A stretch of 61,842 nt of DNA, the filler included, from Hausera hauseri (taxonomy: Eukaryota): NCBI GenBank assembly GCA_046269625.1. It is 10 parts of 10 records of this genome, joined end to end, with 100 filler letters (N's around TTAATTAATTAA, not from the genome) between each part and the next. Parts side by side here need not be neighbours in the genome. Positions count along the whole stretch, not along the records: positions 12,294 to 20,628 come from JBJURY010684327.1; 9 more parts are not named here. One strand, written 5' to 3'. Numbering within the stretch: the stretch's first letter is position 1; the number at the start of each line of letters is the position of its first letter. The notes below the pieces were generated by a model. The model searched no databases. It saw only the letters and a program-made list of their open reading frames with translations, and was not told the DNA's origin. Shown here piece after piece: positions 12,970-52,954 of the stretch. Made by a program: the position numbers and the translations under genes.

Positions 12970-13440
12970 GATTGCACTCGTTTTTGTTTTTAATCTTGAC
13001 AGTGCGTCAGCGTCGACGTGTTTGTTACCCAGTTTGTATTGAAATTCAATGTTATATCGCGAAATTTCCTCGATCAAACGATTTAATCTACCTGTCGGAT
13101 TATTAACTCGTCCTTTTAATGTTGTAACTGCCTAGTGATCCGTTACTATTATAATCTTCTGTCCGTATACATATACATTAAAGTGCCGTAATTCTTCCTT
13201 AACGGCTAACGTTTCTAATGCGGCAACTGAGTAATTTTTTTCTGCTTTCTTTAGTGAACGTCCGCCATAGGCTATCGGGTGTTCTAATTCTTCGCCTTCT
13301 CGTTTCTGAGCTAATTCGTATCCTATGCCTTCTTTACTTGCATCTGTTTTAATGATGAATGGTAGGTTAAAATCCGTATATCTTAGGACTGGTTCACTTG
13401 TCAAAATTTTCTTAATTTCGTCGAACGCTCCTTGCTCCAC
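12970..13440 (-). pseudogene. Gypsy RNase H
   Basis: FIIKTDASKEGIGYELAQ...PIAYGGRSL..AEKNYS...LETLAV...IVTDH, HVDADALSR. Confidence 0.92.
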
Positions 13441-13476
13441 TTCCGTCCATCTCCTCTTAGTTCCTTTTTTGAGTAA

Positions 13477-14289
13477 TCAATATGGTGGTGCGTTAATTTT
13501 TGAATTGTCTGGTACGTAGGTGGCATAATGTCCACATAGACCTAACCAATGTCTTAATTGTTTTTGATTCTGCGGTTCCATACAATCAGATACTTTATTT
13601 AGTAGGGATTTATCCGGTTTTGATCCTCCTTCTCTGATTATTATTCCGAGGTACGATATTGCGTTTTGTGCCCATTTACATTTCTTCGGGTTCACTTTCA
13701 GCCCTGTTTGCTCTAGTCGCATGAGTGTATCTTCAATGTCTTTTAAGTGCTTCTCATCCGTTTTTGATGCTATTATCACGTCATCTAAGTATGCGAATGC
13801 ATGATCAAGTCCCATGAGCATTTTATTCATCATTCTAGTAAAAATAGCTAGTCCTGTGGTGATGCCGAAAGGCATAACATTAAATTCGTATACGCCATCG
13901 TGTGTTTCGAACGCTGTTTTATATCGATCTTCTTCTTCGATTTCCACTTGCCAATATTCCGATCGTAAGTCGAGAGTAGTGAACAATTTCGCTCCTAATA
14001 ATCTGTCTAAAGCTTCTTTTACTGACAGTAGTGGAAACAAGTCTTTCATTATCAGCGTGTTTAATGCCCGATAATCCATACAAAATCGATGTTTCGTGGT
14101 TCCTTTCTTTTTAACCATCAGTATAGGCGAGTACCATAATCGGTAGCTTGGTCGAATTATTTCGGCCTTTAACCTTCGTTCTACTTCTTCAGTTATTTCT
14201 GGTCTCAACGGATGGGGAGGTGGATACCATTTCGGCATTTTCTGTTCTTGTAGATCAATTTCATCATTTGAGCCGGGTTTCTTCCTCAA
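13477..14289 (-). pseudogene. Gypsy reverse transcriptase
   Basis: WYSPILMVKKK..KHRFCMDYRALN, LDLRSEYWQV, KTAF, YEFNVMPFG, FAYLDDVII, KCKW, YLG. Confidence 0.95.
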
Positions 14290-14819
14290 TGAAATTGTTA
14301 ATCTTAGAGCTTTTGCTCTGCTTATATCTTCTTCATTTGTGCCATTATCGAACTGTATTTACATAATAATTCGTAGAACTTGCAATACGCCTCCGGAGAG
14401 AATTTGGTTTCGACGTGAGATTGAAATTCATCGCACTTGTACGGTTTTTCTTCTATTGTTATTGCCGATACTCAACAAGTGTTACCTAGAGTAGTGTTAG
14501 CGTGCAATCGTACGGGAATTTGCGCTTTGTTCACTAATCTGATAGGCATTCGTCCTGTCACTACTGTACATAAAATATTCCTAAACATAAGGTTTGGATC
14601 GGTATTCTCTTGAGACTCACAATATACCGGCAGATCTTCATCTTGACGGATTTGCGCGAAAATTATCATTTCAGTTCTAGGCTGGATGTCTTCATCTACT
14701 GAAATCCATACTTTGCCTGATTTTCTTTCTTTTATTACTTTTGTCCCTTTTACTGGTGCGAGCTCAATTAATTTTCCATTGTATACATCGATTGCGATAC
14801 CTGGTATCTGTTTCAATAT

Positions 14820-15080
14820 ATCTCAACCTAGTACTACATCGTATGTTAACTGATCCATTATCGCAAAATCATGTTGAAGTGCCTGGCCCATCATATAGAC
14901 GGTAGGAGTCCATTTAAATTTTGGCTTCGATACTTGCCCAAATGCTTTTACACTACCTGAGTCCGACGATGCGGGTGGACATAGTTGGTCTCGCAAATTG
15001 GTTGGTATAGATTCATATTTTATAAATGATATTTCTGATCCTGTGTCGATTAATGCATACACTTCCCAATCTTCGATGTT
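14820..15080 (-). pseudogene. Retropepsin-like aspartic protease
   Basis: VYALIDTGSEISFI...YDVVLG*D; the stop corresponds to Cys in copy 1. Confidence 0.88.
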
Positions 15081-15769
15081 TTTTTTAGCAAAAGGTTTCC
15101 CTTCTGCTACTCTTCTGTAGCAATTTGACGCTACCTTTGACTGTTGTATAGTAGAGACTCTATGTCCATTTATTGTTATTTCTGGCGATGAAATAACACC
15201 TTGCCTTAATTGTCTTAATTCGCCTTTCGAATACAAGTCGTTTTTTGTTATCTCGGAAACACGACTGTTAATGAGCGGTTCCTGGGCAGTGAACTTGAGA
15301 TCGAACACAGTTTCGGGTTCTCCCAGATAGGTGATTTCGATTCATTTTGACGCGGTATCCTTTTTGAGTACAATATTCCGTGGTCGTTTTCGGTTAGTCC
15401 TTGTTTGATAACATTCATTTTCCGTAGTACTCCATATTGTTTTGTTTTTTCATAAGGATCTTCGTAATTAATGGGCTTTTGATAGATTTCGGACCTGCAT
15501 AATACGATTGAATTGCGGTCGCAGTCTTCATATATCGGTGCTGTTGGCGGCAAGATGGGTAATGGCGCGTTAATCACTGAGTACATCTTGTGCATCTTCA
15601 TTCTGGAACTCACTTTTCCTCCCTTAAGCTCATCATCATCTGACTCATCCTTTCGTGTTACTATTTTCTTATTTTTGCGTTTATACAAAATCGAAGGCCT
15701 TCCTCGCCGTTTGCGGTTATAGTACCCGACGTGGCGTTCTACGTCATTCTTCCATAAATTTTCTTCGTA

Positions 15770-17600
15770 GGACTTGACCATTTTTCCAAAGTGTGTGATA
15801 ATAGCAGTCAAAATATTGCAACAGAATCCTATCAATGTGAATATTTCATATCTGTTTATAATAGCTTGGATCACTGCTTTAAATAACTTGACTAAGAAGT
15901 AGATGGCTAAGAATCCCGATGCAGCTTGTCCAAAAATTAGAAACCTCCCTAAATCTTGTACAATATTTCTGAAGTTACCCTTTGATAGTGACTAGCGCCA
16001 AGTAGCGATTCCCATTTCGCTTGAATGCGGTTGTCGTTCATGACCATTGACATGGCCATATTCAACTCATAGGTTCATTGTCGTGGAAAAGCTGAGAATT
16101 GCCTAAAGGCTTCTATGTCCTTTGGTCTATAAATTCATTTATTGGCCGTGTCTTCGAACTTCTGTTTTGATAATCCCTTTAGTAAATATGTTCCAGTTAG
16201 TTTACTAGGGGCTGTGGCAGAACCTCTATTAGGTAGACTTATCCAGTCGGTTCCACTACGTCGGAACATAGGTTCACCTAGACTCGTCTTACATTCTTTC
16301 AGTATGGTTGGTTCGGTTGAGTTTGTTAATAATACTCTGGTGAGTGGCATTGCTAGTCTTGGCATATTTTCATAGATGACCTGTAATTCTTGCATGCATC
16401 TTTTCTCTTCTACGTTAATCGGTACGTCTCTTTTCTCGCATTCGTAAGTTAATAGGACTTCTCCAGTAACTCGTCCAAAAACACCTTCTTTCATTGGTAT
16501 AATTGGCGATGCCAATTCTGGGTTGGCATAAATTAAGGCTAGTTTGGTTCTCATGACTTCAGTATCTAGTCTGCAGTCATTTGTTATCATTTTGTGGTAT
16601 AGTTCTGCTATTCCGGTTTTTCCTTTGTAATAAAAATAGTCGTCTCGATTTTTGAGATATTTCTCAATCCTTATGTCTTGCGTTTTCAAATCATACGTTT
16701 TCATGTTAATTTCGGTTTTTGCTACGAAAAATGCTTCGGAGTTTGTGGCATACATAATTACATAGCAACTTGTTAGCATATCTTTTCTAATAAACTCTAA
16801 TCCATGTGCATCCGATATCAATATCGTTGGTGTGGGATATTCTACTACATCTTCCCTTGATCTGGTATTTGTGTGTAGTTTATTTGTATAACGTTTTCCG
16901 GTTGTCTCATTAAACTTTAGCTCTTTGATTTTCATGAAATTGCAATCTCTCTTAGAAGGTTGGGTCCATACCACAATTGAACTCCGGAACGTGCAAGCAC
17001 CGTCATGAATGTGACACTTCGAATTTTAGGTAAATAGTTTGGTAACACTATGAACCATTGCTTTCAAGATCTTAACTCGGTTTCGTAAACATGTACGACT
17101 AGTATTCCTCCTTTCTTTCCCTTTCCAGTGCCATATTCCCTTCCAACACAATAACCGGTGTGCATATTTAGTTTTCCGACTGTCACTTTGTAGGCTCTAA
17201 TGATCTTTCCTTCTTGGGCTTCTAATTCCATGCCGTCCCAAACAATTTTGCCATTTAGCCGGGCTCCTAAACAAAGTTGTCTATCCACGTTTATTGGGAT
17301 TAATGATGTGGTTGGTTTGATAATTGAAGAATGCCCGTGCATATTACCACAATGAAAAACGCCGCGAGATTTCCCTATAATGCATTCCGTCGCATCCATT
17401 GAGATTAGTTCACGTTGCTGATATAATACATACCTTTTTTTCTTGTCTCGAGCTTATAAGGTCTCGCATCTTCGCATGTTTTTAAGTATATTAAGGAATA
17501 TTTCTGGCCTACCTTGAATTTGTCACAGTCTTATATGGCGACTGCTCCCACCTGCTTCACTAACAGCATTATTGTTAGTAGATTGAATAACCAAATCGAT
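15770..17600 (-). pseudogene. Chuvirus-like class III fusion glycoprotein, copy 2
   Basis: Signal WLFNLLTIMLLVKQVGA, AI*DC (YDC in copy 1), FHCGNMHGHSSI (cf. chuvirus YCGMHSH), TGYCVGREY, DCRLD..RTKLALIYANPE...GRVTGEVLLTYEC...RCMQELQV...PLTRVL, and TM FLIFGQAASGFLAIYFLVKL followed by a second hydrophobic stretch. Confidence 0.85.
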
Positions 17601-20600
17601 TCGTTCCCTCTACTTAAAGAGATGTTTCGTACTATGTCCTTTAAGTTATTGGTCCTTTTCGTATTGACCTCTTTTTCGAATAGTTTAGCCCATTTTATTT
17701 CTTTAGGTACCCTTCTCGCCGCTTTCCTAGCTAACCCGATAGTTTTGTCCAATTCAGTTTCTCGAAGAGGATTAGTTTTTGCAGCCAAGTATATCAAGAC
17801 TTTCCTTAATTTTTCCGTCGTATTGTCTATCATAATTCTGTCAATTACTGTTTCGTCAGGGAGGGTGATTTTAGGTAATTTAAATCGCGAAGTCTTTATT
17901 TTCTGAGCTGCATTACATATTAGTCTTTCCTTCTTGGATAATATGTCGCCTTGGAGTGCGGTATAATTGACTATCCTTATTAGATCTCTCATTAGCTCGA
18001 TTAGTTATTCGTTACCTGATCTCGGAGTGGGTATTAATAATTGTCTCAATTCCCTGATTAGATCTGCGTTATAGTCAATTTCCTTTATTTTTCTTAGTCT
18101 TCCGACCAGTCATTTCGGTTTCACCGGTAACGAAGTTTCTCTTAGGGGAACTAAGTTCCTATCGTATTGCAGTTGATCATCATCAGTCTATAAGTATTCG
18201 AAATACATTGCGGCATCTTGGATCCCCATGATTTTCCCAACGCAATGCTCTGTATGTGACTTTCTCATGGCTTCATCCTTGGTTTGCTCGCTGGCGACTA
18301 TGGCTATTATTCGATTCGCTTCGAGTGGTATAATCCCAACGTCTATTAAGAATTCTAGCTCATCTAATATCCTACCTCTGAAATAGAGTTGGTAGTTAAC
18401 TCCTTTCCTACCATCCTTATCCATTATCCTCTGTTTTATGTTCCCAACGGTGGGATAGGTAGTACACTAAAATTCCTTGTCATCCATTCCTTCGGATGAT
18501 ACTTTCACTTTAATTTCTGCTTCCGGTTTATTTTTCAATAGTTTCGCGTACTCTCTTATTAAGAGATTTAGTACGGTGCTGTATGCGGTATTTTCGCTAG
18601 ATAGTTTAGTCAAGGTTGGAATCAATTCCCTTAACTTCTCTTCGCTTATGTTTATTTTCAACATTCTGCTAGTTCCTTTAGCGAGCGTGAGATCAAGTAG
18701 CATTTGGACATCAAATTTCGTCTTCCATGCACCAGTAGGTGACTCATAAATTTGTATTGGAGTTCTTTTACTTTGCTCGGTTAGACCTTCGAGATATTTA
18801 TCCCATTTAGCTTTATTATCCGCGTCAGGTAACTCGTAGTTCGTTAGTGCCGCATGTCCGACCTGGACTCTTTTGCGTAATCCTCTTATTTGCGGCTGCA
18901 ATGTTTTCATTACGGATATTCTAAATCCGTCTCAATTTCCACACCCTTGATGTATCAATGTTATTAATCGGCACATTTTTTCTGGTTGTATCAAGTCTTT
19001 CCCCGATAACTAGTCATTTCCGCAAATCTGTCTCTTTGTCATCTCTGTATAAATTCCGTTTTGTCATTCATTTCAGATTCCGTAAGGAAATACTTGTTCT
19101 TGCAAACTTCTGTTTCTCTCAGTAATTCGTTTAGCTCGCGGTGCCTTTTTTCGGAGGGTAACCGGGTTTCTTTTAGCAGACGTATTTGATTTGATAGTCG
19201 TTTGGCTACTACTTCGTTAATTTCTGCCATTTCTGTTAATAATGAGATTAATTTGTGCATTTTATTCAATACTTCAGCATCCGGATCTATTGCATCCATT
19301 AGCCTGCCTATGAACTTGGCTTCATCCGCCGTTAACTGGAGATCTTTCCTTATTTCCGTTAGTTCGTTGTGGTAGAGTAGGTCGAACCCTGGTGTCCATT
19401 CTGGTGGATTTGTAAATACTTTAGTGTCTAATTCGAGAAGACAAGCACGCATTATTCTCCGTGCTTCTGCCTTTTCAGGGTAAACTATACCGATTCTTAA
19501 GTCGTTAATTTTAGCTCGTATCTTATTTTCTTTTTCAATACGTATTTTTAAATCTGCGTTTTTTCGAGTGCTATCCTTTATTAAGCTACACATATCTATT
19601 AGAAAGGAAATGTCGACTTGGTATATGCCCAATATCTCTAAGTCAGCATCAGTCAATTCATATACTGGCTTGTTATGCAGGTAAGAAATTATCGTTTCTT
19701 CGATTTCATATATCAATCCTTCTAGATTACGTCTTACGCGTTTTAGTTTTAGATTGTCCTTTAGTGCGTCTAATAGTCCTTGAGTTTGATTTATTTGTTC
19801 CAGAAATGGCTCATTTCTATTCCACCATATTTTCGGAAAATCAATCTCACTCTTTGTCCATAATTCTAATTTACTTTGCCAACTCTCTATTAAGTCTTTC
19901 GGCTTTTTCTGCAGTCTATAATGTATGTTTTTTTCCTTTTCTTGCGAACCGGTTTTAAGCTTTTTACATAGCTTTTTTATGAATGTTGTTCTTCTCCGGA
20001 AATATCCAACTGTTTGCTTTTCTCCTGGAGTTTTTGTAAGCTCTCCTGTAGCCTTTCCGGATCATTCAATGCGTCTCTTATTTTTGTTATTTCGCTACCA
20101 TTTTTCCCAGACTTTCTAATTTTTCCAAATTTTGTAAATTTTTCCTCTTTCGATTCCTCTTCACTAAGTGGTAACGGACAAACTTCATTAATTTCATCGA
20201 TATTCGAAATATCTGTTGTTTCCGGAACGTTTTGAGTTATAATAGGAGTATTTAACATCTCTTCATTTCTTAAAGTGATGATGAAATCTTCCTCCTTTCC
20301 TACATTCTTTTTAATAGGGGATCGTGAACGAGTTCCTGACCTTCTCCTAAGAGAAGGGATTCTACCTCTATTCTTGGTTATCTTAAGTATTAATGGTCCA
20401 ATAAATTCACTCTCAACTTCGTCAGTTGTTTTATCCTTAATTTGAGACAGTACTTCGGTATCTGCGTCCAAGTTTACACTTGAAAGCGTAGACAGTTTTT
20501 CTTCTTTCTCCTCTCTTACTGCTTAATTTAGATTTTTCTTCCTGGCCATAATAGTATTCTTAGGTGCTATAGCTTTTTCGTACTCTGTTTTTGGTTCTCT

Positions 20601-20628
20601 TAACCCATGATAAACTTCCATTTGCTTC
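17590..20628 (-). pseudogene. Large N-terminal polyprotein region (gag position), helical/coiled-coil, with an embedded ubiquitin-like domain at about 18290-18515
   Basis: ORF pieces 18467-18910, 18188-18424 and 17531-17992 share one frame that runs into the G signal peptide. RRRSGTRSRSP motif near 20330. No CCHC knuckle seen. Confidence 0.7.
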
Positions 20629-20762
20629 NNNNNNNNNNNNNNNNNNNNNNNNNNNNNNNNNNNNNNNNNNNNTTAATTAATTAANNNNNNNNNNNNNNNN
20701 NNNNNNNNNNNNNNNNNNNNNNNNNNNNTGATTCCAACTATAATCCCGATTACATACTTTAC

Positions 20763-21671
20763 TTGCGTTCTCTGACACTTAAACACCCATCTATAGAGCG
20801 CTACTTAAATTGTGCAAAACGGTGTTTCGAACAGTATGCGACATCGCAGAAATCATCGGGCTCGGAGAAACGGGAATGTAGCAAAAGTAGCGATTTCGTT
20901 ATTGATTGTATCTGCGAATATCCGTACGATGACTGGCGTATGGCGCAATGCGAATCATGCGGAGTACGACAACACATTGATTGCGCGCACGCCCATCCTA
21001 GTCAAGTGCAGAATTTTCTCAAACATCGCTGCCACAAATGCAGCGATATTAAAGCGGATATTTCGCGTGCTAAAGCTATTCAAAGTTCTCGTAAAATCTG
21101 GCATATGACGACTATGCAAGCGGATAAATTGTGCTATTGCATGAAATCAAAATCAGAAGATTTGAAGAAGCACAAGGATCTTTCTCTACAAGCTAAAACA
21201 TTGGCCACAGAATTCAATAAATTAACAGGTAAAAGCCTTGCAAATAGGGTTAACAAGCGTAGACAAGATTTAAGGGCATACGCGGAAAATGAAAAAAATT
21301 CAGAAGATATTCCACCAACAACAGCATCAGTTAATGAAGAAACTAGCAATGTTGTTGGTTCTAAAATTACTGCATTGGAATTAAACACGGCTCAACCAAC
21401 AAATGCACCGTTAAGTATGACTGATACAAAAGCAGATGATAACGCGCCCCTTAATGACGATTTACCAAACAAAGCTACTGACGGTTCTGATCTTTCGAAT
21501 GTTGTAGATGAATATGCTCAGCGATTGGCTCTTCTGAATAGGAGAAATCAGCCATTGAAAAAAGACTACAAAGAAGTTACGAAGAGTCTTTATTCGAATA
21601 ATCTACTTACCAAAGTTGAAAAACTCAAAGAAGGCAAAGAGGAAAAAACAGAATATTTTGGCAACAAGTAA
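20763..21671 (+). CDS. PHD-finger protein fragment (KMT2E/MLL5/UpSET-like PHD)
   Basis: VIDCICEYPYDDWRMAQCESCGVRQHIDC...CHKC...DISRAKAIQ: C4HC3 pattern with the QHIDC signature; 5' end at the contig edge. Confidence 0.7.
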   Translation: MRSLTLKHPSIERYLNCAKRCFEQYATSQKSSGSEKRECSKSSDFVIDCICEYPYDDWRMAQCESCGVRQHIDCAHAHPSQVQNFLKHRCHKCSDIKADISRAKAIQSSRKIWHMTTMQADKLCYCMKSKSEDLKKHKDLSLQAKTLATEFNKLTGKSLANRVNKRRQDLRAYAENEKNSEDIPPTTASVNEETSNVVGSKITALELNTAQPTNAPLSMTDTKADDNAPLNDDLPNKATDGSDLSNVVDEYAQRLALLNRRNQPLKKDYKEVTKSLYSNNLLTKVEKLKEGKEEKTEYFGNK

Positions 21672-22055
21672 TATTGAAGCTAAAAATGCTAGTGATGAAA
21701 CAAGTTCACGTTTTGCCGCCGAAAATGGCCATGTTGAGGTGTGTCAGTATTTGCTTGAATGTAACGCAAACATCAGTCATACGTCAGAAGGCGGAAGAAC
21801 TGTACTAATGACGGCTAGGCGAGCAGGCAATTTAGAGGTTGTTAAACTCCTTGTTGAAAGAGATGCAAATGTCGATCAATTAACTGATCAAAGAGATCAC
21901 AATGCTCTTAGTTTGGCATGTTCTAACGGACATTGCAAGGTCGTCGAATATTTGCATAAAGTCGGTGCTGGTCCAGCAATTAAATGGGGAGATAACTGTA
22001 CCATTCTCACCGACGCATTACGAAGGGACATTTTGATGTTACCGACTTATTACTG
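21660..22055 (+). pseudogene. Ankyrin repeats of ANKHD1/MASK type, one frameshift after the PHD ORF, cut off by the Gypsy insertion
   Basis: AAENGHVEVCQYLL, HTSEGGRTVLMTARRAGNLEVVKLLV, DHNALSLACSNGH resemble MASK repeats (HESEGGRTPLMKAARAG, DHTVVSLAC). Confidence 0.75.
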
Positions 22056-22411
22056 CGCGACTTGAGGGGAAACTCGGCCACCCTGCATTTGGGTGCCCGT
22101 CCCGCCGCGGCGGAAGTCCCGACCGTCAACCCTGCGCCGGTCGGTCGCACTGCGCCTTTCGCGTCGGCTTCACATCACGCCCCCAGGCGCACCACTCCTT
22201 CCCCTTCTATTTTCTGTTTACTCAATAATACCCTCATTTACACAATGATTATATAACATCTACACATTCCCACCCTTCGTACCTCCATTTTTTACTCAAT
22301 TCTTCCGATTTTTATTTCACCCATAACGGCGCTATCATACCTCTCACCGGAACCCTACCATCTTTCTCAAGCTACATTTGCCTCCACATATGTCTCCGTA
22401 TCCGTGGTGGC

Positions 22412-23402: not shown

Positions 23403-26400
23403 GTTCGCCGCCAGAAGTCACGGCAAACTCTGGCAAAAGCACTACTTCACTTTCTGAACGCTGACACATCTCTTTTGCTGTCTTTACTCTAAAGGCTGCA
23501 ATCACTGCTCCTACAATACAATCTGTTGACTTTCCCATCTATACAGGTGCAGCGATTTCTTTATTACCACAAACCTTTCCTGTACAAAATTCTGCATTCA
23601 AAATTAAGCCCTTGTACACTGATTCAGGCCAACCGCTGCACATTTCTGGCATGGCTAAATTGCCTTTTACTTTACCCAATTTTCCTTTACCTTTCCACTG
23701 GACGTTCACAGTCGCTAATATCCAGATGGCAATTCCAGGGTCAGACTTTCTCTCACACTATAATTTACTGGTTGACTGCAGTCAGCGATGTTTGAGGAAC
23801 GGCACTACTGGCGACATTTCTGGACATGTAAATAGCATTTCGACTACCGCGCAGTCGACCGGAATGCGGAAGTCAGTCTTAAAAAGTCTATGAATAATTT
23901 GATTTTTTGTAACAGTAATTCCATTCGTAAATTTTTAAATAATAATATTGATATACGATCGAGGTTCGATGTCGATAATTGTGGTACTGCCACCAACGTT
24001 AACACATTCGACAACAATACTTCATCCAACACCATTTTGATTTCAACCATCTTACATAAAATACCACTTGACTGCACATCATCAAACAACTCACACATTG
24101 CATCTGCTACTACTCAAGCCCTTTCACCACTTTCACCGAATCTCTCAGTTGCCTATAACTTTACAACAGTTCGTCAACACATTATGTCCATGCGTACTTG
24201 AAAAAGGTCGTATGTTTACTCCCGCAAACAGTACTTTACACAACATAATCAGACAGCACCAACGTCCAATACACCAAAAAGTACGGCCTCTGTCACCTCG
24301 CCGTAGACAAGCCATAGAAGCCGAATTTCTTGAACTAGAACGTTCTGGCATAGTACGCCGTTCCAAATCTACTTGGTCATAACCTCTACACGTTGTACAA
24401 AAAAGAGCGGTACTTTTAGACCATGCGGTGATTACCGACAGCTGAACAACTTGACTATCATGGACGCCTATTCTTTACCACTCATCAAAGATATCCTGCA
24501 TCGTCCTAACTCAACCATCATCTGTTCAACCATTGATTTAGCTAAAGCATACCATCAAATACCGGTAGCACCCGAAGACATAGAAAAAACTGCTGTCACT
24601 ACTTCCTTTGGCCTCTATGAATACCTGTTTATGCCATTCGGTTTGCGGAATGCCGCACAAACTTTTCAGCACCACATTGATTTAATTCTTGCAGATTTCC
24701 CATTTGCACACCCTTATATCGATGATATTCTAGTCGTTTCATCTTCGGCCAAACAACACGAGGAACACCTTAGTGCTATATTCCAACGTCTTAACCACCA
24801 TAATCTCCAAGTCAGTTTCGACAAATGCCATTTCTTCAAAAAGCGCATTAACTTTTAGGCCACGTTATTACACCAGGCGATCATTCTCCCCTATCAGACC
24901 AAGAGGAAACTCTTAAAAACATCCAGTTGCCACGTACCACCACCGAAATGCGTAGCTTCCTTGGCACACTCCACTTTGTACATAAATATGTATCATATTG
25001 ATCCGAATTGACAGCACTATTTGCGCACCTAAGCGGCGGCAAAAAACATCAGCCAATCCAGTGGACACATGAATTGGTCGACATATTTGACAAGCTACGC
25101 GAAGGAATCAAAACCGTAGATATTTTAGATTTTCCCAAGCCTGATAGTTCTATAGAGAACTATTGGTCATCGTTCTCGCTTTAAAGCACTTCTCCCACCT
25201 ACTTGTCGCTCACCATTTTACTATACAAACCGATCACTAGCCCTTACTTAACATCATGGCCATGAAACACCCTTCCACACGGCAAGAACGACAAATATCA
25301 TACTTATCGACATTTAACTTCGATATTAAACATATTAATGGGGTTAACAATTTGATTAATAATGTTTTATCTAGGTCGGTTAGTTCAATTAATTTTTCTC
25401 CAATTTTTACACAAAATCAGCTTAAACAGAACCAGCCACCTCAAGACATGCTTAATTCTTTCCAGTTTTGCACAATCGTTGACGTCGTGGCTTTAGGAAA
25501 CTCCAAACCAGGCCACTCCGTAATAATTCTAGCACCAGCATTGCAAAGGCAAGCATTTTACAGCGTGCATTCACTACACCATCCTGGTGCTAAAGCCACT
25601 TTTCGTCTACTCCATCGACAAGTGATATGGCCGACAATACGTTCTGATGTGCAGGCATGGGTTAAGGAATGTGTGGCTTGCCAAAAATACAAAACAACTA
25701 AGCATTTAAAGCCACCACTATTCCACTTTCCCTGCACATCGCGTTTCGAATCCGTGCATATCGACATCGTTAGCCATCTTCCTCCAGACAACGGTCATCA
25801 ATTCATTCTCAGCACGATGGACCGTTCCTCGCGATGGCCAGAAGCCATCCCTTTGCGGAGCACAAATACCGACATTATAGCTGACGTTTTCATTCGCACA
25901 TGGATTAGCAGGTTTGGATCACCTCGCTTCATCATCATGGACCAGGGTCCACAGTTTGAATCCAACCTGTTCAAATCCCTCGTTAAGCGATTGGGGATCC
26001 ATCACATATATACTACGCCTTATCACTCCCAATCGAATGGCCTTCTAGAACGTTTCCACCGAACAGAGGAAACGTCACTAAGAATTCTGGCAGGGTCCAA
26101 CGCCAATTGGACGAATCTTCTTCCGTTTGTTCTGCTGGGCTGGCAAAACACTCCGTCCTCTTCTACAGGATGCTCACCTACTGAAGTCTTATTTGGAGCT
26201 CCTGTCCGATCATTATTCGAACTAACTGCCCTAGACGACACTCCTACAGATGAGACGATACGGGCGGCGCAAAATCACTTCGTCGAGGTCAGCAAAGATT
26301 CGTTTTACAGGATACTTCACAAAGACAAAACATACTTAACCGAAGATTTGTGTTCGGCGAAATTTGTATGGCTAAAGAATCAAGCACCTTAAGGTTTCCA

Positions 26401-28349: not shown

Positions 28350-30520
28350 GTCTTTTTTTTTCTTTCTTTCAAACGCTGTGATCTTTACACCAGTAGTCTT
28401 TTCCTTGTTATATAGGATGAGGTTTGAAGTAGATCCTCAATATTTACATACATTTTTCTATGTGAGTGAGTCTCTGTCGTCCAGTGCTCATTACTGTCTT
28501 GGCCGAACAGAGGGCAGTACTGCAGAATGTGCTCTGTTGTTTGGTCTCACATACAACATGGACATTTGGCATGTGGTGCCAGTTTTAGTTTGTGCATGTG
28601 TTGATTTAGACGGCCTTGACCAGCTCTGAGTCGGAACAGAATCACCTGGTCTGTTCGATCAAGAAGATGGATGCCGTCTCTTGGCTGAGGTGTTTTCCTC
28701 ATTGCTTTAACGAAGGTTCTCATTTCACTGTAGCTGACTGTAGATTCATTCTGTTTGCTCCGATTTTGCCCCGCCTTATGCTAGACTATCTGCCTTCTCG
28801 TTTCCGTGTATGCCACAGTGTGATGGAATCCACTGGAGTAGGATCCTTCTGCTGTCACTGACGTTGAATAAGGCCTTATTGAGCTCTAGCAGTTTATCTT
28901 TTTCAAGTGTTTACAGGACAGAAAGTACATAAGTGAAGAACACTGCCTGGTGGCATGTGTTCTTTGATCGGTTAATTATTTCAGCTGCTTTCTGAAGGGC
29001 TTGTACCTCAGCATCGTAGTTGGAACACCATGTTCCAGTAGGAGACTGAGACGTTTCATAGCTCCATCTGGATACCTTATGTATACCTCTGCGCCTCCAT
29101 TTTTAACTGATTGTTGCTGAGCCATCCGTATAGACATGAATCCAAGACTCTGATGGGAACTTCTCATCAATCATACTGCAGGCAAGAGTTCGTTTCTGCA
29201 GGTCATTTATATGTTCACTAGTGTGGTAGTCTTTAATAGTAGTGTTGATAACAATGTTATCAATAGGTTGCTCCCATAGTTTTGGTAAAGAAGTAGGCAT
29301 TTCTGGTGTGGCTGTACTGGGAAGCTCATTATTGTACATTCTTATTAATCTTTTAGAAGGATGAATAAAACTACTTTGTTTCAGCCGTCCACTGGCCAGG
29401 TCTTCAAATCTTGCTCTGTTGGGATGTATGCGGTTTTGTTGAAACTTTACACTTGCAATAAAGTTTAGTGTCCCTTCTGTAGCTAAGAGGTGGCTTTTTT
29501 CGATGTTTTCTATTGGGTTTGACATCATGGCCCCAAGAATTTGCATGAGGGCTTGGTTTTGGACTTTATCTAATGCTTGTTGATGTGAGGTTGCAGCTGT
29601 TGACCATGCTGCTGATCCATATTCAAGGATAGGCCTTACTGCGCCTGTGTAAACTCTTTTCAGTGTATTTGTGTTTGCTCCCCATTTGGTTCCAGCTAGC
29701 TAGTTTGTGTAAGATGGCCAGCCTTCGTCTTGCTTTTGATTCTATTGTTTTCAGTGCATTGTTTCCAGGTTGGTCTGGTGTCTGACACCTAGGTATACTG
29801 GGTTATTGTCTGCTTGTAGTGTCGCGCCTCCAAGTTTGATTTTTCCTGCTTTGTCCTTGTTGGACAAAGTGAAAAGTGTTGTGAAGGATTTCTTTATGTT
29901 GATTGTTACCATAAAGTTCTCAACCGACTGCCAGATTTTATTGGCAGCACTTTGTATTTGCTTATTTGCTTTTGTTAGATGTTCTTCGACACACCATTCT
30001 GCCAGATCATCTGCATAAAAGGCGGCTTTGATGCCTTTTCGGAGCTCTTGAATGAGGTCATTTATATAGACCAAGAAGAGAGTTGGTGATATAACTCCAC
30101 CCTGAGGTACTCAATGTCGCAGTAAAATCTTTCTGCTAACATGGTTTGCTGTTGTTATTCTAACTCTTCGATTATATAGAAAGGTTTGAATCCGTTTCCT
30201 CATTTGTCATCGAATACCATATATTTGCAGCTTTGCGATTAGTTCTCCCTTCCATACTTTATCGAATGCTTTCTGCAGATCGATCCATAGGACAAACACT
30301 TTCTTTTTCTCTCGGAAAGCGTCCTCGAGTCAGTTTCTTGAGACAGGTGAGTTATTTAGTCATCTGCAGCCTGCCTGCTCCGGGACAATAATTTTACTTG
30401 ATTCCATGAACCATGTAAGTCTGTTGTTGATTATCCTCCCTACTGTATTGCTTAAAGAGCAGGTGAGGCAGACTAGTCTGTAGCTGGAGGCTTTAGTTTT
30501 GTCTTTTCCTGTCTTGTGTA
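28350..30520 (-). mobile_element. 5'-truncated non-LTR retrotransposon of the I group (RT-RNase H-CCHC), decayed
   Basis: Minus strand: SYRLVCLT, PEQAG, DLQKAFDKVW, PQGGVISPTLFLVYINDL, FYADDL, YLGV, VYTDGSA, QWIPSHCGIHGNEKAD, RLRAG..RLNQH, CPC...QTTEHILQYCP; 3' tail GAAAGAAAGAAAAAAAAAGA. Confidence 0.9.
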
Positions 30521-35723: not shown

Positions 35724-36929
35724 AGCTATGTTTACATGGACCTGAGTAATCGTATTACTGGCCATTTAGAATAAAAATGTGTCATGTAAACAACCCATTT
35801 GGATTATTCTGATCCAATTCAGTGTGATCCAAATGAGTTTGTAATAGGAATGAGAGGGGTGATTTATGCCGATTGATCATCTCATTTAATCTGATCATCT
35901 CATTCTGATTGTGGAAAACTGAGCTGACTACATATCTTTTGACTTTCATCCACTGGTTTCTGCTCGTTTGTGGAAGGAGGAGCAGCACCACTGTAGTTTC
36001 CAGCAGCACAGAACTTTTCCCACTGTATTCTCACTCAATAAAGGAGGATAATGCACAGTCTGCACTGCTTTACCAAAAAAAAAAAGATATCTGTGAATCA
36101 CCTGTAGCTCAACCAGGCCAGGGAATGTATTAATATCTCCACCACCTTGCGGGTCCATTCTGAGCGCTCAAATGGTTGTTTATGTTCATCATTTTTTTAT
36201 TTGGAGTGGGGGGGCACATGTCAGTGCTTTTATTCTGAATAAAAACCTGGAGTACCTAAACACTCGTCATGACGGATTATGTCATGTATGTTTACGTGCG
36301 TAAAATTCTTTGATTGGATTAAAGTGTATTCTGATTAAATAATCCGAATGTTTACATGCATCAGGCATTCTGAATAAAAACACTGACATGCACACTTGTG
36401 AAACTGCCCTAAAAAAACCAAAAAGTTTTATTTTCGGGATGAACAAACACAACCATCTTATGTTCAGTCAGGATGGAGCCACAACAAATTTTAATAATTG
36501 TGGACACATTACTGCTCTCCCTGGTTGAGCTGCAGGTGTTGTGAGGATTTCTTTTCTATTTTCTTGTGCAAAGCAGCACATGCTGTTTATCTTCCTTCTT
36601 TATTGAATGAGGGAGAAAAAGTTCTGTGCTGCTGGAAACTTCAGTGCTGCTGCTCCTCCCTCCACAAAGGAGCACAAACCAGTGGATGAAAGTCAGAAGA
36701 CACGCACTCAGGTCAGTTTTCCACAACAGAATACGATGATCAGATTATGTGTTTACATGCATGCTGTTTGGATCGTCAATCAGCATAAATCACCCCTCTC
36801 ATTCAGATAACAAATTCATTAGGATCGAGCTGAATCAGATCAGAATAATCCAAGTGAGGTGTTTACATGACACATTTTTATTCCGAATGGCTGCTTAATA
36901 CGATTGCTTATGTCCATGTAAATGTAGCT
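35724..36929. mobile_element. Long palindromic non-autonomous DNA transposon (MITE, Harbinger-like termini)
   Basis: AGCTATGTTTACATGGAC...GTCCATGTAAATGTAGCT termini; the arms are imperfect inverted repeats over several hundred nt; no ORF. Confidence 0.75.
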
Positions 36930-36963: not shown

Positions 36964-37912
36964 ACAGAAGAGCACTGCATTCACCTAATACAGTTTTTTG
37001 ACTTCTGATCTCATAATTACGAGGTAAAATGTCATAATTATGAGATCAGGATCTCAAAATTACAAGATAATCTCAATTGTGATAAATTCTCATAATTACG
37101 AGATCAGGTTTGAATAATTATGAGATAAGATGTCATAATTACGAGATCTTGTTCTCCTGTGGATTTTGAGCAGGCACTAGTCCTACATGTGTAATGCCAA
37201 AAGCACGAGTGCCAAGAACAAGCTGAGATGTTTATCCACCTGAATTTTATAAAGGTATGACCCACCGAGTTGAAACTAGGGGAAGTGTGTGCTCTTTGTG
37301 TTCATACAGGACATAATTTAAGCATTTCAGGTGCATGAGCTACTTATAGCCACAGCATCACGTACTGCAGGAAGAGAGTGAGTTCCAGCATGTCAGACTG
37401 GGCTTTTTGCTTGTACAGCCATAAGGAAGACACCTGTGTAATGTCAACATACTAATATTAATGCCATCTGTAAGGTTTTGTTCGGACTGTATTGAATCGG
37501 GCTCTTATTTTGAAACATCCAGTTGCTAAACTGAAAGTACCACTACCAGCTAAATGACATGTTTGTGATGAATCTGCCGAAGCTGAATTAAACAGAACTC
37601 CCGTAGACCGAATTTTGACTGATTTATTAACAAACCTGCAGACAAAAAACCATCCACATTAAGTAAACTTAACATTGCCCAATATTTCATACCTATGAGG
37701 AAATAAAAGCAAATAAAATGTAATAGTGGAGTCATTGTTTACTTTTCCTGTAGTGTCTGTAGTGTAGATCATGGCCATTTAACTTTTCTCATACTTATGA
37801 GATCAGGATCTCGTATTTATGACATCTTGTCTCATAATTATAAGATCCTGATCTTGTATTTATGAGATCAAGGAGTCAAATTTTTATTTGATGAATGCAA
37901 TGCTTTTCCGTA
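36964..37912. mobile_element. MITE with subterminal arrays of short palindromes (TCTCATAATTATGAGA-like)
   Basis: Termini ACAGAAGAGCACTGCATTCA and TGAATGCAATGCTTTTCCGT are imperfect inverted repeats; arrays of ~20-nt units at 37005-37150 and 37785-37870. Confidence 0.7.
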
Positions 37913-40299
37913 AAAACAGTGTTTCAAAATGTAAAAAACTTGTACACAAACTTCTTGTAGTTACCATTTTATTTTACTGTTATTGTATTAATAAACTGAT
38001 TCGCAATGACATTATTCATTATTGGAATAACAGAAGTACAATATAAACTGACGGGTTGTTTTTAACATTCATTACTGTTATAATTAAACATTGTGTTTCT
38101 ATGAAAGCAATAAAATGTACAACAGCAATGTTCTGTATAAACTCAATGTTTGATATCCCACTATTGACTTATATTTACAAATATGAAGAACTCACACATG
38201 GGTATCAGTCCCTCATCTCTACTGTTGTAACCTGCCTGCATTACGTACATTAACCTGGTAGGAGTGGCTGCAGCTCACTTTATAATGTTACAGATTTCAG
38301 ATGAACACTATATGCTACAGGAAAACATATCAGTAATGGTGTTGACATTATGTCTGTTTTTAATTGTTGCAGACATTAGAAATAATAAAATGGCATCTTA
38401 CAGGAAAGACACTGCTGACTCATCTTACAATGTTGACAGTACACTTCTGTTCACCTCACCATGACCAGCCTCATAGTGATTCTGTTAACATCTGTAACAG
38501 GCAAACAGACAGGCTAATCAGTTAGCGTTAGCTTACGTCATGTTTACAGTTNNNNNNNNNNNNNNNNNNNNNNNNNNNNNNNNNNNNNNNNNNNNTTAAT
38601 TAATTAANNNNNNNNNNNNNNNNNNNNNNNNNNNNNNNNNNNNNNNNNNNNTCGAATTTGTCATTTTATGTGTTAGTAAATGGTGATTGTTTAAAAAAAA
38701 TAAAAAAGAAATAGATAGTATAAACTCAAGTGGTTGGTGTGGTGATGGAACACACCATAGCGTGGGACTCATTGACTTATGAGAGATGGTTGATTGGTTT
38801 ATCATGCCATGATTTGTTTGCAACTCAAGCGTATGAGATGATTGGAACACTTTATTAATTTCTATGTTGCCATCATGAAATTCACAAATTCTTGCGAGTG
38901 CGGAGTATCTCGAAAAACTATGTCGTGGATAAAGAATAAAGTGGAACAATGGTTTAATAGAATAGACGAAATTTAATATCTGAGGATTAAAGAAAAGTGT
39001 TTTAGTAAAATGGCCTGGAATTGCAACGAAGGTAAAAATTGTCTCGGAATGATTACAAAATGTATCAACAACAAACGCCTTCGCTGTATAAAGACAGTGT
39101 TTCAAAATTTCGAGACGACAGAGAACAGAAGAAATCAAAACAAATATAGAAAAAAATGCCAAGAAGGACTGGTGGCAAATTCAATAAAATTTGGGAAACT
39201 AATAAAAACTGCAATAATCAGAATTTGGCCAGCCTCAGTTTTCTTTAAACGGATGTAAATAATAATGGGGTTTACACGGGAAATATTCGGCCTCCCCATA
39301 GCATTATAATAGATATGACCAAAATCAACAATCTTCTTCAAAATTGTTCTAAGGAACCTCGGTGAAACAGTGTAGGTTGGCCCATTAGAAATCTTGTATA
39401 CCAACAACAAAGGGAACGACGAAATGGTTAGCAATAGCAATTTATGTACCCATTTTAAATCATTTATATCATTTATTATTCCCAAAAGAGTTATATTATC
39501 TATCGAGGGCGGACCTGCCGGACCAATTGACTTTAAAGTGTTGTTCAAAGTGAGTTTTGTACTTATCAGGACCCGGTGAGAGATGATTATCAATTCCTCA
39601 TTGAGGTAAATACTCAATCATGAAGGTAAATCGGATATGTCGGATATACTCACATCTGGAAAGGGTAACCTTACAATGGAAAATATATATTTTAGAGGGC
39701 AATGTTGTACCAAAAATGACTTGAATAGTAAAATACGATATAATTAGATAAGATATATCATTAACGAAAAATATATTAAAATATCTGCCGAACGAATGAC
39801 ACAAAATTACCAGTCTCACCCCGTCGTGTCTCCAAAAAGGTTGTCGATGATCTTATCTGACTGATGAAACCCTTTGAATTGTGACTTTCAAAGAATTTAT
39901 TCTTCTTTACTGATTCAGTATGCGTTGAATTATTGAAAGACAAGAGTTGAAGTTTGTTAATATTGATCGGAGTATTAGAGGTATATTCAGGAGCTATGAG
40001 CTTTGCTGTCGATTGAGACGGTAGAATTGATGCTTGTGAAAGAGGTGGTAAATTGCTTGTAATATTGACGGTGTTGGTCCGCTGGGTACATGTAACAGTT
40101 ATCGTACTTTTAAGTGATGAATCTGCAGAGTGGGACAATTTGCTTGAAATTTTGTGTATGTTTCAATCGTTCCGCTTCATTTTTAATGAGGTCCATTTTT
40201 TCATTTCGCTATTATGCATTTGCAGCGTTAATCGATTTCCCCGTCCGAAACTTAGGTAAACTGCTACATATATCGTCACAATAAGTGGAGAGATCACAG

Positions 40300-42672
40300 T
40301 GTCATCAAACCATTCATCATAACTAGCTACATCCAGTTTATCTGGTACCTGAATCCCATAAACGTGAGCAAGAATTTCCGCATACGAACAAATGAAACTC
40401 ATGTGCAGTGGATCGTTCCGATCAAATTTTATCGGAATCGGCTGTCTCTTCGGAAGCTGCCAGAATAAAGATCCGTCTTCTGATGTAGTATCTGGTGGAA
40501 AACTATGAACTTGACGAATTTCGTTCGACCTAACTGCACGTATTCTCTAAATGACATTGGCCTCTTTCTGATCACTTTCATTGACGTAATGAGGTCTTCA
40601 AAACTATACTCTGATGACGTATCCGTATGGCTAGCTTGACTCAGATATCACTTAACGGCTGACGGTTTCAAAAAAATGTATCAAAAAACTTTTCTCGACC
40701 ACATTCAACACAGTGTTCTATTTTTCCTGGAAACGACTTCAGAGTACAATAGGGAATTTCGGTGTCAACTGGATCACTCAAATTTGAATAATTCTCAGTT
40801 ATGTGAGGTATTATAACCTGAACATCACCTTTTGTACTCATCGTTCCAGATTCAATGAGACACGGTCGTCCATGTACCGTCTGCCTTCCACGTAATCGAG
40901 GGCAATTAAACAGATGTCGATATTTTCAAAGAAAGTATCGCTATAGACATTTTCAGTAGTCGGGCAAACCATGTTCTGATGAGCCTCAATTCTCAGATCG
41001 GAATTCATTTCCAGTACTGACAAACGGGCAACAACGCTCTGCGGTTCTTTAATGTGTTTCTCTTTGAACAGGAAACGACGGTTTGAATGGGATTTTTCTA
41101 TGAGGTCATTGTCCGTAATGTGAATCTTGCTTGTATTTATTTCGTTAGAGTATATTTTCACATCTACATTCGTTTTAGCGTCATCTCTCTGCCAGGCTGA
41201 GTGTCGGGGTTTAGTAACTGTGGTGGTGCTCATTTCGTCATCAGCATTTGTTACTAGAGAAAGTGGTGCATCGCCACAAGAATTCATTCTATCATCTGCA
41301 TTACCGCAATTGTTCTCCTGTTTCTTCTCGGATATATTTGCGCTAATTCCCAGTAGTGCCATATTCTTCAGAAGTTCACAACCTATTGCACCACATCCAA
41401 GCATAAACGCCCGAAATTTTTGAAGCTCATTCAAAAGATTCATACTAATGCATCTTCGCAGACCGTCATACCGGGTTTTAAAATTTTTTCTATGTGAATC
41501 TGTAACCAGAGACTCATTCGAAAAAACAACCATTGTTGAATTGGGATGAACTAATGGGTAACAGCTTTTATTGCTTCCTGGGCTACAACACCGCCCAAAA
41601 ATGCGCACATTGGTTGAAATTCTCTGGATGATGTAAAACAAAGATTTTTAACAATCTTCCAGCACTCGTTATTTAGCTCTGTTCGGATAGACAATTTGAG
41701 AGATTCGTCAGATTTCTTAACTTCATTGTAATCGTTGATTGAGCCTTCGTCCGAAAAACGATGGTTGAGTCGATGGAACTTTTTCAGTGCCAGGTGTAGA
41801 ACGTGTATATGTTTAGAATACTGTTGCCGGCAGAAATCAGTATTTATGATTCTGGGCTTTACGTACTGGCCGAAAAAGTTTTCAAACAATAGCTTTTTGC
41901 ATTTTCTTTGACAACAAATTCTGTTTTTCTCTTACTGTGAGAATTCAGATGTACCTAACTGAAGTCGAAGTTCCGATTTTAACGGTACAATCACTTTACG
42001 CTCCAGTCCATTTATTTCTACCATTCCCTCAACATCCTAGAAATTGATAGTCTCCTGTTTTCAATCCATGCGACTCCCCGTTTAGGGCTTTCAAGACAAG
42101 ATTGGTTTTATTTCCATTATGTCTAATATAGAACTCAACCACTTCCTCGTCATTTTCCGATTCAATGGTGAATGACTGTCCAAAATCGCAAGAAATCACA
42201 CCGAGCAAGCCGATAGCATCGGCGACGATAAACTTTATATCTTTGTTCTGACAAAAATTGCTGATGAATCCGATGTGGACGAGACTTGTTTCAGTTACAG
42301 TGATACGCGCAACATCCTCTAAATCTTACAAAATAGCTTTGTTCGCATCGTTTCTCATATGTTCTGCCAACGACGTTAGAGTAAATGACGGAACGGTTAC
42401 TTTCACACACGGATTTAGCAGGCTAATTTTCGGCAACGTGGCTTGGGCTCTAGTTTTCAACGAAATCACGTCCTTCTCATAAATATAGAACTGCGTACCA
42501 CAATCTTCAGTTATGCATGGATTGGAATCGTGCAAATATATTTCTTTTATTCCGCCAAGAACGAGATTCTTAGCTATCTCCACGCCTAATCCCTTTAATC
42601 CATAAACATAGACCGATGACTGTAACATTAGCTTCATTCCAAAATCACCTAAGACATAACGTTGCCGACTAT
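40300..42672 (-). pseudogene. UBA6: Ubiquitin-activating enzyme E1, UBA6 type; intronless, frameshifted, C-terminally truncated
   Basis: YSRQRYVLGD (UBA6-type; UBA1 has YSRQLYVLGH), GLKGLGVEIAKN, AFLGGVVAQEAIKAVT, GCGAIGCELLKN, TDNDLIEKS..NR.FLF, catalytic EIPYCTLKSFP, DGSLFWQLPKRQP; stop at 42326 and several frameshifts. Confidence 0.88.
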
Positions 42673-42674
42673 AA

Positions 42675-43040
42675 TTATAATAATTTATTCTTATTTCTGA
42701 CGAATTTTCTAGTCTGTTGCTCTTTTCGATATTCTTCAGCGCTTTTCTTTAATTCTAATTGGATCAGCTTTGTTTTGATAATAGTTTCGTTTAACTGTTT
42801 TCGCGTTTTATTTCTTACGTCAATCAATTCAGCAGAGAGATGTTTCAGTGCTACGACTGTGCTATTATTCTGATTTTCCAAATCTCTTTGATCCCACTGC
42901 ATACTCGCTTTGATTTCTATTACTTCCGTTACTTTCTGAAAATTCGTGTTTTCATACATTGGAGATGTCTGACACCATTGTTGAGTTTTGCTATTCGTGC
43001 TTAATTTCATGGTGTGTATATCCAGAAACAAAATTAGCAT
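42675..43040 (-). CDS. Hypothetical coiled-coil fragment abutting the UBA6 pseudogene
   Basis: 121-aa frame rich in E/K/Q/L heptads; no family recognised. Confidence 0.3.
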   Translation of the reverse strand: MLILFLDIHTMKLSTNSKTQQWCQTSPMYENTNFQKVTEVIEIKASMQWDQRDLENQNNSTVVALKHLSAELIDVRNKTRKQLNETIIKTKLIQLELKKSAEEYRKEQQTRKFVRNKNKLL

Positions 43041-49465: not shown

Positions 49466-52400
49466 CCTAAAGCAGTAAAACCGTAGTCAATGTAGAAAGT
49501 AATAACGACGAATACTCTTTTATTTACAGTATTTTAGTCATTAAAATATGACGAAGTGCCCAAGAAATCGTGTAATTGTTCAAAACAATATCGTGAGTAT
49601 TTTTCCGAATTGGACTTTGAAAGCTGGATGCCGATGAAACTCAAAACCATTCCGGCTTTTGAACGGCGTAATCCGACACCGTCAATCGACGTTTTCCGGT
49701 ACAATTCAGCAATAGAGATACCGACAGATGAGGAAATTTACAAAAATCCTCACGTGGACATAATCTATCGAAGTTGGAACCCGAATGGACGTCTTATATA
49801 CCTGTTTCTGTTGGAGCAGGCAGAAAATTTTCATCACATGGCTGTAACAAATCTGGTCAGACTGCTGAACACGGACCATGACCAGTTCATCCAAAAACAA
49901 ATACGCTGTAAATGGTGCCCTATATGTTTGCATGACTTCAGATCAGAAACGGCGCGGGAAAAACACGCGGCGCTATGCAGAAGAAATGTATCTGGAACAA
50001 CAATGTACGTGTTGCTCGTCAAAAGGGAGCTGAGATTCAGTGACTTGTCGAAAACGGACAGTCCAGCATATGTGGTCTATGCCGATATTGAAGCAATTCT
50101 ACCGCGGCACAACGTATACGACAAAAAGTATATCCCAATCGCCGTTGGTATTTTGCTAGTACTAATAAAATCCAAGGGATAACCGCAGTATTACGTTTTC
50201 CACGAATGGAACTGTACGTGATTTTTTGCACCAGTTGGAGGTAATAGTGGAAAGGGAAATTGCACCGTAGTACAGGAACAACAGCACTAAGCCTTTGATC
50301 TGGGCAGACGAAGACGAACACCTTAGGTTTACAGTCACATAAATGTTACCTGTGCCATGAAACATTACCATTCGATAAACAGGAACGGCTCGAACCTGAT
50401 CACGAACACTTTACTGGACGATACTTGGGATCAGCATGCAATTCATGCAATTTAGCACGGCGTGCGCGGCTATTCCTGCCGGTGATATTTCATAACTTCA
50501 GAGGTTATGATTGTCACCATATTTTGAAATGGGCCATTAATGGATTTCCACACTGGGAACTGTCCATAATCCGAACAACGATGGAGAAATACCTATCTCT
50601 GGCGGCACGTATAAACCGGTTCTAGGTGCGATTCCTTGACTCATTACAGTTCCTCAGTGAGTCTCTAGCAAAGCTGGTAAATGCCTTTCCGGATGTGCCG
50701 TTAACATCAACGCAGTTTCCGATGCATATTGCACGTAGCAAAGGTATATTCCCGTATGACTTTGCTGTATCGTACGAGCGGCTTCAGACAACAAAGGAAT
50801 TGCTGCCGCAGTGGCCCAGTATAACAGAAGATGAATATTGCAGCGCACAGGAATCTTGGTCAGAGATCGGCTGCAGAAGCCTATTTGATTACATGCTCCA
50901 GTATTTGAAACTGGGCGTGTACTTGCTGGCCGACGTGTTTTAGACATTTTGAACTAAGGCGTTGGCGGAAGATAGGCTGGAGCCGCTCAACTTTTAGTCC
51001 ATATCGGGAATCAGTTGGGCGTCGGCTCTGATATCACTGGTCCGGGACATTGAGTTGTTGAAAGACCTAGAAATGTACCGACTGTTTGATGTTGGTATTC
51101 ATGGCGGCATTACATTGTCAACAAGCACCACGTAACCAGTGATGATAACACCACGTCACTGCTGTACATTGACATTAATAACCTGTACAGCTGGGCGCTT
51201 TCTTAACCCTTGCCGTATAGTTCATTTAAATGGCTAACCGACAAGCATGATCTGGAGGCAATATTGGAAAATTTATTGAGAGCAGATACGGCAGAAAACA
51301 GCTCATTCGGCTACATGATGGAACTTGATCTCGTGGTACCGGATGAGTTGCATGGCGCTTTGGATCAATTGTCTGTCGCACTAATCAGCTAATGTCCGCT
51401 CGGCAGCTCAAAGATGAAGAAACTGCTCATGACGCATGAAGCGAAGATGAATTACGTGATCCATTGGCGTCTGCTACAGTTCTACATGCAGCTCGCTGTG
51501 CGCGTCACACGGCTGCATCGCGCAATCAAATTCAATCAGGCGCCGATATTCGAGGCATACATTGACGGAAATTCAGAAAAACGAGCCACAGCTTCCACAA
51601 AGTTCGAAATGCACTACTACAAGTTGAAAAATAATTTTCTCTAAGGCAAAACGGTAGAGAAGCTCAAAAAGCGACTCAGTGTGCTCCTATGTAGCTACGA
51701 AAAGCTGCTGGTTATGTACACCAGCAAGGCTCAGTTCAGGCGGTCAATGACATTGCCGATGGATTGATCGCCGTGTTGTTAAACAAGGAAGAAGTACTGG
51801 ACTGACCAAGCTATATCGGACAAGTGGTATTGGAGCTTTGCAAGTTGCGAATGTACGAGCACCAGTATCGCGACTTGGCACGTTACCGGCAAATGTTTGG
51901 CGGCGACGGTGGCTGTGAGATCGGTATCGTTGCCGGTGACACAGACAGCTTTTTCCTTGAGCTGAAAAACATCAATCCAGACCGGCTGCTCCGACAAATT
52001 ATGTCAGATGGACTACTATATACGTCCAATTATACGCAGAATCATCCGCTGTGTAGCAAAGCCATCACGAAAAAAATCGGCTGCTTCAAGGATGAAAGCG
52101 AAGGCCGTGTTCAGTACCGAGAATGTATATTCTTGCGCTCAAAGTGGTGGTCTCCTGACGGACTGTGGACCGAATATGCGCTCAAAAGGCGTTCAGCTGT
52201 CCCAGACGGAAATCAGCCACGGTAATTATTGCCGTATCTATGAAGCAGTAGCAGCAGAAGACAGGACGACAAAGAGGGGGAGGAGGAAAATCAATGGCTG
52301 TATATCATAACAAACACAAAAATCGCTTTGTCATGTAATGATGATAAGCGAAAGTGGATGGGGCGAAATAAGAGTTGGGCGTATGGGCATTGGCGTTTGA
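49466..52400 (+). pseudogene. pPolB, decayed but complete at the C-terminus
   Basis: PVIFHNFRGYDCH, FLDSLQFL, KGIFPYD, SLLYIDINNLY, YKLKNNFL*GK, AGDTDSFFL, IGCFKDE, DDKRKW, AYGHW. Confidence 0.92.
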
Positions 52401-52689
52401 AAGAACACATCTTATTCCTTATATGCTCCGATGATTCGAGGCAGACAGTTACAGTCATTTGTACATTGTGACAATTACTGAAATCTTGTGATTTTTACTG
52501 TTGTTATGTCAATAATGTATTTTTTTCACCAACTTTTCGTTTTGTTTTATAGTTTAATATTTTTCATATTAAATAATGAGTAAGAAAACGTTAGTTATAA
52601 TTAAATTTTAATACAGTATTAAAAAGTCAATTTAACACTACAAATGCAAATAAGTTTATTAAGCATTAATCACAAATCACAAAATTACG

Positions 52690-52914: not shown

Positions 52915-52954
52915 TGTCGAGTTTTTTCATTGCTTCCACCATTTTCTTAGCCTC

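Follow-up and report, generated by a model that had tools for sequence, protein, structure and literature searches.

The window analysed here, 61,842 nucleotides of Hausera hauseri (GCA_046269625.1), consists of ten contigs joined by nine 100-base N spacers with a 12-base all-frame stop (starting at 6895, 12194, 20629, 26836, 32652, 38552, 44658, 49366 and 55212), and adjoining contigs are not genomic neighbours. The minus strand of the 8.3-kb contig at 12294-20628 (JBJURY010684327.1) carries a predicted ubiquitin-like (UBL) domain, within a decayed Ty3/gypsy element of the order cargo-Env-PR-RT-RH-IN. Stops and frameshifts are found throughout the element, and this copy is dead. The contig is cut at both ends, its 5' start at 20628 lying already within coding sequence. 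The features are as follows, with those of a second copy last; "Burro" is a planarian element to which we return below.

19042..20628, minus: coding sequence further upstream that lies in other frames, charged and of low complexity at first, followed by an open frame of 340 codons, and truncated where the contig starts; neither capsid nor knuckle seen in Pfam, PDB or the translation
18515..18931, minus: in-frame upstream region, a compact alpha/beta stretch (no Pfam match; single-sequence pLDDT about 55 over residues 40-135; best VIA Z 5.3 in the fold search with that model, not significant)
18290..18514, minus: predicted ubiquitin-like (beta-grasp) domain, 75 codons with 1 in-frame stop, without C-terminal GG (Pfam, PDB, profile, alignment, model)
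18467..18469, minus: in-frame TAG inside the UBL, one of several breaks in the decayed copy (translation)
17534..18289, minus: in-frame downstream region, 252 codons with 3 stops and a hydrophobic signal-like end (translation)
17540..17596, minus: hydrophobic internal segment, signal-like, with which Env opens; it shares the frame of the UBL (hydropathy 1.8)
15770..17453, minus: Env, a Monjiviricetes-type fusion glycoprotein in 3 frameshifted pieces (PF24664, E 1.8e-8, 7.8e-19 and 1.9e-9)
15527..15568, minus: proline-rich block with PTAP at 15547, placed in the tail beyond the Env anchor; a candidate late domain
14826..15341, minus: retropepsin-like protease (PF00077, E 0.0092, below cut-off)
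14475..14822, minus: insert between protease and reverse transcriptase, placed where Burro has a dUTPase-like domain; no relevant match in Pfam or PDB
13135..14358, minus: reverse transcriptase and RNase H (PF00078, E 6e-33; PF17919, E 2e-32)
12294..12900, minus: integrase start, cut by the contig end (identified by eye in translation, without a Pfam scan)
6995..12193, plus: second, diverged copy on another contig (nucleotide identity of 67-69% in env and pol)

The UBL frame is open from 18931 to 17534 with 4 stops, and it runs in the same frame through the signal-like segment of Env; the two other frames over 18828-17629 hold 7-14 stops per 100 codons. Because the frame ends in the segment that opens Env, some 230 residues separate the UBL from the Env signal that follows it, and the UBL would lie on the cytosolic side. 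The other junctions of the element are frameshifted in this decayed copy. The second copy likewise has a signal-like segment, near 7070-7120 (plus strand), and the hydrophobic anchor segments of Env begin near 15925 and 15844. The initial annotation had embedded the domain in an N-terminal polyprotein. This stands insofar as the UBL is integral on the Gag side and in frame with the Env start; fusion to Gag itself is a candidate arrangement, with neither a capsid nor a CCHC or zinc knuckle found in the 8.3-kb contig, which begins inside coding sequence. The GC content of the domain (0.39) falls between the values of its flanks (0.40 and 0.38), and this agreement points to a capture long ago. 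The regions neighbouring the UBL gave no match in Pfam, PDB or fold searches. A degenerate P-loop upstream and a BCL2-like domain downstream, both proposed by eye, were set aside as Pfam and PDB gave them no support.

Other contigs of the window hold a variety of further loci. A different, Env-less Gypsy element (reverse transcriptase at about 24330-24940, integrase at 25241-26389) is directly preceded at 20730-22062 (plus) by two frames, one cysteine-rich and weakly PHD-like, the other with ankyrin repeats, and another reverse transcriptase fragment lies at 29103-30110 (minus; PF00078, E 1.2e-10). Two diverged Polinton-like copies, 71-86% alike in blocks, are found at 846-3585 and 49483-53762 (plus), with weak matches to DNA polymerase B and to an adenovirus-type protease. 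Inverted arms of 121 bases (35761-35881 and 36771-36891, 85%) and short 43-base repeats at 37013-37855 possibly belong to a MITE or to a DNA transposon remnant. Pieces of a ubiquitin-activating enzyme E1 (ThiF twice, E1_4HB, UBA_E1_SCCH) occur as broken, closely spaced frames at 39779-42748 (minus) and look like a decayed, possibly intronless copy, while 56712-60230 (plus) is an uninterrupted frame of 1172 codons for a SNF2-family helicase, no introns being apparent.

Identity of the ubiquitin-like domain

The translation on which the domain had been proposed is exact: it reads 18514-18290 on the minus strand through a single TAG. With that stop read as X, the segment matches the Pfam ubiquitin family PF00240 (E 4.7e-4, 20.3 bits, under the 25.4 cut-off), whereas the same scan gave no match to PF11976. 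In a phmmer search of PDB, each of the best 60 among 264 rows is either a ubiquitin (variants and fusions included) or ISG15, with E values of 0.03-0.14 for single-domain matches. A library of 1.84 billion proteins yielded 55 matches, all of them over query residues that include about 160-195, i.e. the UBL part, and the six that were inspected are multi-UBL proteins. A profile built from 66 natural UBL units gives the segment 23.1 bits and the reversed segment 2.2, a test that is mildly circular because the proteins behind the profile were found using this query, as the Pfam and PDB results are not. None of 5000 shuffles reached the score (best 8.9), and when the entire window is scanned in six frames the segment ranks first, the next locus having 7.3.

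Alignment with ubiquitin, made earlier by eye, is upheld: residues 1-61 align without a gap and with 15 identities (25%), and the last strand fits after a shift of two residues. Core positions are non-polar in 13 of 15 cases, the equivalents of I13 and I36 being Lys and Arg. At 25% identity, a gapless register and a kept core suggest long selection for the fold. The C-terminal GG is indeed absent after the last strand, in support of an integral, non-conjugatable UBL. Without GG, a ubiquitin-like domain cannot be conjugated, nor can deubiquitinases clip it off as a tag.

In structure prediction the beta-grasp pattern is obtained with a borrowed ubiquitin alignment, not from the single sequence. 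The single-sequence model of 247 residues (pLDDT 43.6 overall, 27-52 in the domain region) left the domain unfolded, and fold searches with it gave no significant match. By contrast, a model of 83 residues, made with an alignment of 19 multi-ubiquitin proteins that is mis-registered at its ends, displays the beta-grasp pattern (pLDDT 75.4, pTM 0.61) and superposes on ubiquitin with a Foldseek TM of about 0.75; in VIA it reaches Z 11.8 and an rmsd of 2.2 over 76 aligned residues. As the alignment drives this model, it speaks for compatibility with a beta-grasp and is not independent proof. Its neighbours include the UBLs of Rad23, Dsk2, FAT10 and midnolin, and UBLs of many unrelated jobs, the RNA-binding UBL of SF3A1 included, are tied at VIA Z 10-11. 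Altogether we consider it very probable that the segment is a ubiquitin-like domain.

Other copies of the element

The second copy in the window starts downstream of the UBL and thus has no bearing on its presence. Two sequencing runs, X1 and X2, labelled as different organisms, carry the element family (22,539 and 2,106 contigs compared, respectively); X1 may be the source sample of the window itself, and no RNA dataset is among the runs listed as carrying the family. The domain recurs in other copies: three of the 16 pieces listed (24,739 in total), 15-19% different from this copy, span it or join it to either flank, namely X1 record 6 and X2 records 14 and 15. Among the pieces listed, 5 gaps fall across the domain in X2 record 15, and an X1 contig of low depth leaves out 18290-18400. 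Summed contig depth in the two bins over the domain is 10717 and 9281 in X1, where the 30 bins range over 2487 to 57645, and 171 and 194 in X2, a depth that resembles that of the flanks and is not to be read as copy number. The UBL is therefore quite probably a family-wide component of the element.

Intact relatives were sought in protein collections. For the UBL frame, 2161 candidates (proteins of 435-2000 aa) yielded no family homologue; for Env, 779 (519-2000 aa) yielded no relative; and among cluster representatives none of the 55 matches extends past the UBL part. A search of long proteins matched 39 of 2416 candidates, with 23-40% identity over 11-30% of the query, none of the 39 being annotated with PF24664 or PF00240. 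The viral contig collection searched gave no match, and two metagenome loci were discarded as chance matches to apparent bacterial ABC-transporter genes. As no intact family protein was found, the surface residues of the UBL are read from one decayed copy. In the env part of the two window copies, which alone of four pairwise codon comparisons is in clean register (the reverse transcriptase and signal parts are frameshifted, the tail too diverged), 113 codons show 25/15/48 differences by codon position.

Possible roles of the domain

The surface by which ubiquitin is recognised is remodelled here, with Glu at the position of L8, Gln at R42, Tyr at I44, Arg at K48 and Pro at K63. The Glu and Tyr codons at the L8 and I44 positions are each two base changes away from any Leu or Ile codon, so that decay by single hits is no explanation of these replacements. 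We take the UBL, its core kept and its face changed, for a candidate docking module. We propose tentatively, by analogy, that in active elements it is a non-conjugatable docking surface for proteins of the ubiquitin system, a reading that leans on the cargo of related elements. The domain would have been captured long ago from host ubiquitin or a close UBL gene, and would be placed in the cytosol, before the internal signal by which Env enters the endoplasmic reticulum. Lacking GG, it would undergo neither conjugation nor cleavage by deubiquitinases, and its remodelled L8/I44 face may fit a specific partner, such as an E2, an E3 or an apoptosis regulator encoded by the host or by the element, general ubiquitin receptors being less favoured. 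Budding would depend more probably on the PTAP-like block than on the UBL.

In our judgement a role in structure or assembly unconnected to ubiquitin signalling, whether as a folding unit or by binding Gag or RNA of the element itself, is rather unlikely. A core retained while the recognition surface drifted would agree with this, as would the tie between UBLs of unrelated jobs, that of SF3A1 among them; yet the nearest sequence is ubiquitin itself, and related elements carry a cargo biased towards ubiquitination and apoptosis.

The initial annotation had looked to budding, with the built-in ubiquitin recruiting ESCRT. Ubiquitin fused to Gag without GG substitutes for late domains and synergises with PTAP/PSAP, L8 and I44 being required and K48 and K63 dispensable (available part of PMC2958808). 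In favour of this idea, the element has an Env and a PTAP-like block of its own. Between the two copies the proline-rich blocks (15527-15568, minus, and about 9090-9135, plus) are identical in 11 of 14 residues, in tails otherwise about 33% identical, and chance alone would supply about 0.03 PTAP/PSAP motifs in a length of 2700 residues. The replacement of both L8 and I44 nevertheless weakens the case, the second copy reads STAP and not PTAP, and UBL and PTAP flank Env and may fall on different cleavage products. Recruitment of ESCRT by the UBL together with the PTAP-like block accordingly loses its place as the lead mechanism and appears unlikely. We give slightly less credit still to its fuller version, a natural ubiquitin and PTAP budding system in which an invertebrate lineage of endogenous retroviruses would have captured ubiquitin independently of the SUMO-like domain of Burro and would use it, with PTAP behind the Env anchor, to call ESCRT to one membrane-threaded polyprotein.

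Targeting to the proteasome had been suggested as well, and here the UBL would send the pre-Env part of the polyprotein to degradation in the manner of a UBL shuttle or a FAT10-type degron. An integral UBL without GG would suit such a role, and Rad23, Dsk2, FAT10 and midnolin are among the fold neighbours. Proteasome receptors, however, recognise the I44-equivalent face, which is altered here, and shuttle UBLs are usually N-terminal; moreover no fold neighbour stands out from the others, and the alignment drives the model. This role is improbable. Equally improbable is that the domain is a passenger insert without function, or that it resembles ubiquitin by chance. In favour of this are a Pfam score below cut-off, the break in this copy, the gaps and the deletion seen in one other copy each, and the failed single-sequence fold; against it are the shuffles, not one of which attains the score, the gapless register with its conserved core and the copies in two runs labelled as different organisms.

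Comparison with known systems

Errantiviruses of the GAG-ENV-POL HSV/gB type, from Nematoda, Bryozoa and Platyhelminthes, have Env before pol and a chuvirus-related fusogen, as does the present element (available part of PMC13524379); the word "ubiquitin" occurs 0 times in the main text and 0 times in 7 supplements. An earlier statement that there is no clear Gypsy capture of chuvirus glycoproteins (PMC10084718, in its available part) is superseded by that work. In what is available of PMC12440569, no link was seen between Troyka and this element.

Like engineered Gag-ubiquitin fusions, the element combines a ubiquitin fold lacking GG, within a retroelement structural polyprotein, with a PTAP-type motif; the engineered moiety is an intact ubiquitin that needs L8 and I44 (PMC2958808, same part). 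The UBL described here, in contrast, is 25% identical to ubiquitin over residues 1-61 and lacks both. The PTAP-like block constitutes a concrete candidate for the budding of these elements. The ubiquitin insert of BVDV acts as a cleavage signal that needs GG, which is absent from this UBL. The likeness to cytopathic BVDV lies in the capture of host ubiquitin sequence into a viral polyprotein (PMC2850149, as far as its available text goes).

The closest parallel is with Burro/GYPSM1, giant gypsy-like elements of planarians, as described in the available part of PMC6431247. Their polyprotein comprises Gag, cargo, a Ubi2/SUMO-like domain (PF11976), BCL2, an in-frame Env, PR, a dUTPase-like domain, RT, RH and IN; the Gag is N-terminal and bears CCHC knuckles, the cargo is rich in ubiquitination and apoptosis domains, and the elements have LTRs and a total size of about 30 kb (PMC6431247). 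The present element likewise has a ubiquitin-family domain upstream of a mononegavirus-like Env, an Env lying between the Gag side and the protease (from the placement of PF24664), an insert between PR and RT, and the gypsy order PR-RT-RH-IN (integrase by eye). Unlike the SUMO-like domain of Burro, its UBL matches PF00240. The region 17534..18289 takes the position of the BCL2-like domain of Burro, with no BCL2 match there by Pfam or PDB phmmer. In the incomplete contig 12294-20628 as a whole, the same searches gave no match to BIR, BCL2, MATH, RING or ankyrin, a difference from Burro to be read with the fact that several published Burro calls used HHpred (PMC6431247). Gag, LTRs and total size fall outside the 8.3-kb contig, and the likeness refers to Burro by its published description. 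The element is Burro-like in gene order and in the position of its UBL, and it may be a member of the Burro group. In the literature searched, a ubiquitin-family domain ahead of Env is mentioned for such elements in one paper (PMC6431247), and no report testing one was found. The layout is already known from Burro elements, and ours is a further case of this layout: it adds an enveloped Ty3/gypsy element with a pre-Env ubiquitin-family domain that is apparently of ubiquitin type rather than SUMO type. If the docking role is true, such elements would manipulate the ubiquitin system of their hosts as large DNA viruses do.
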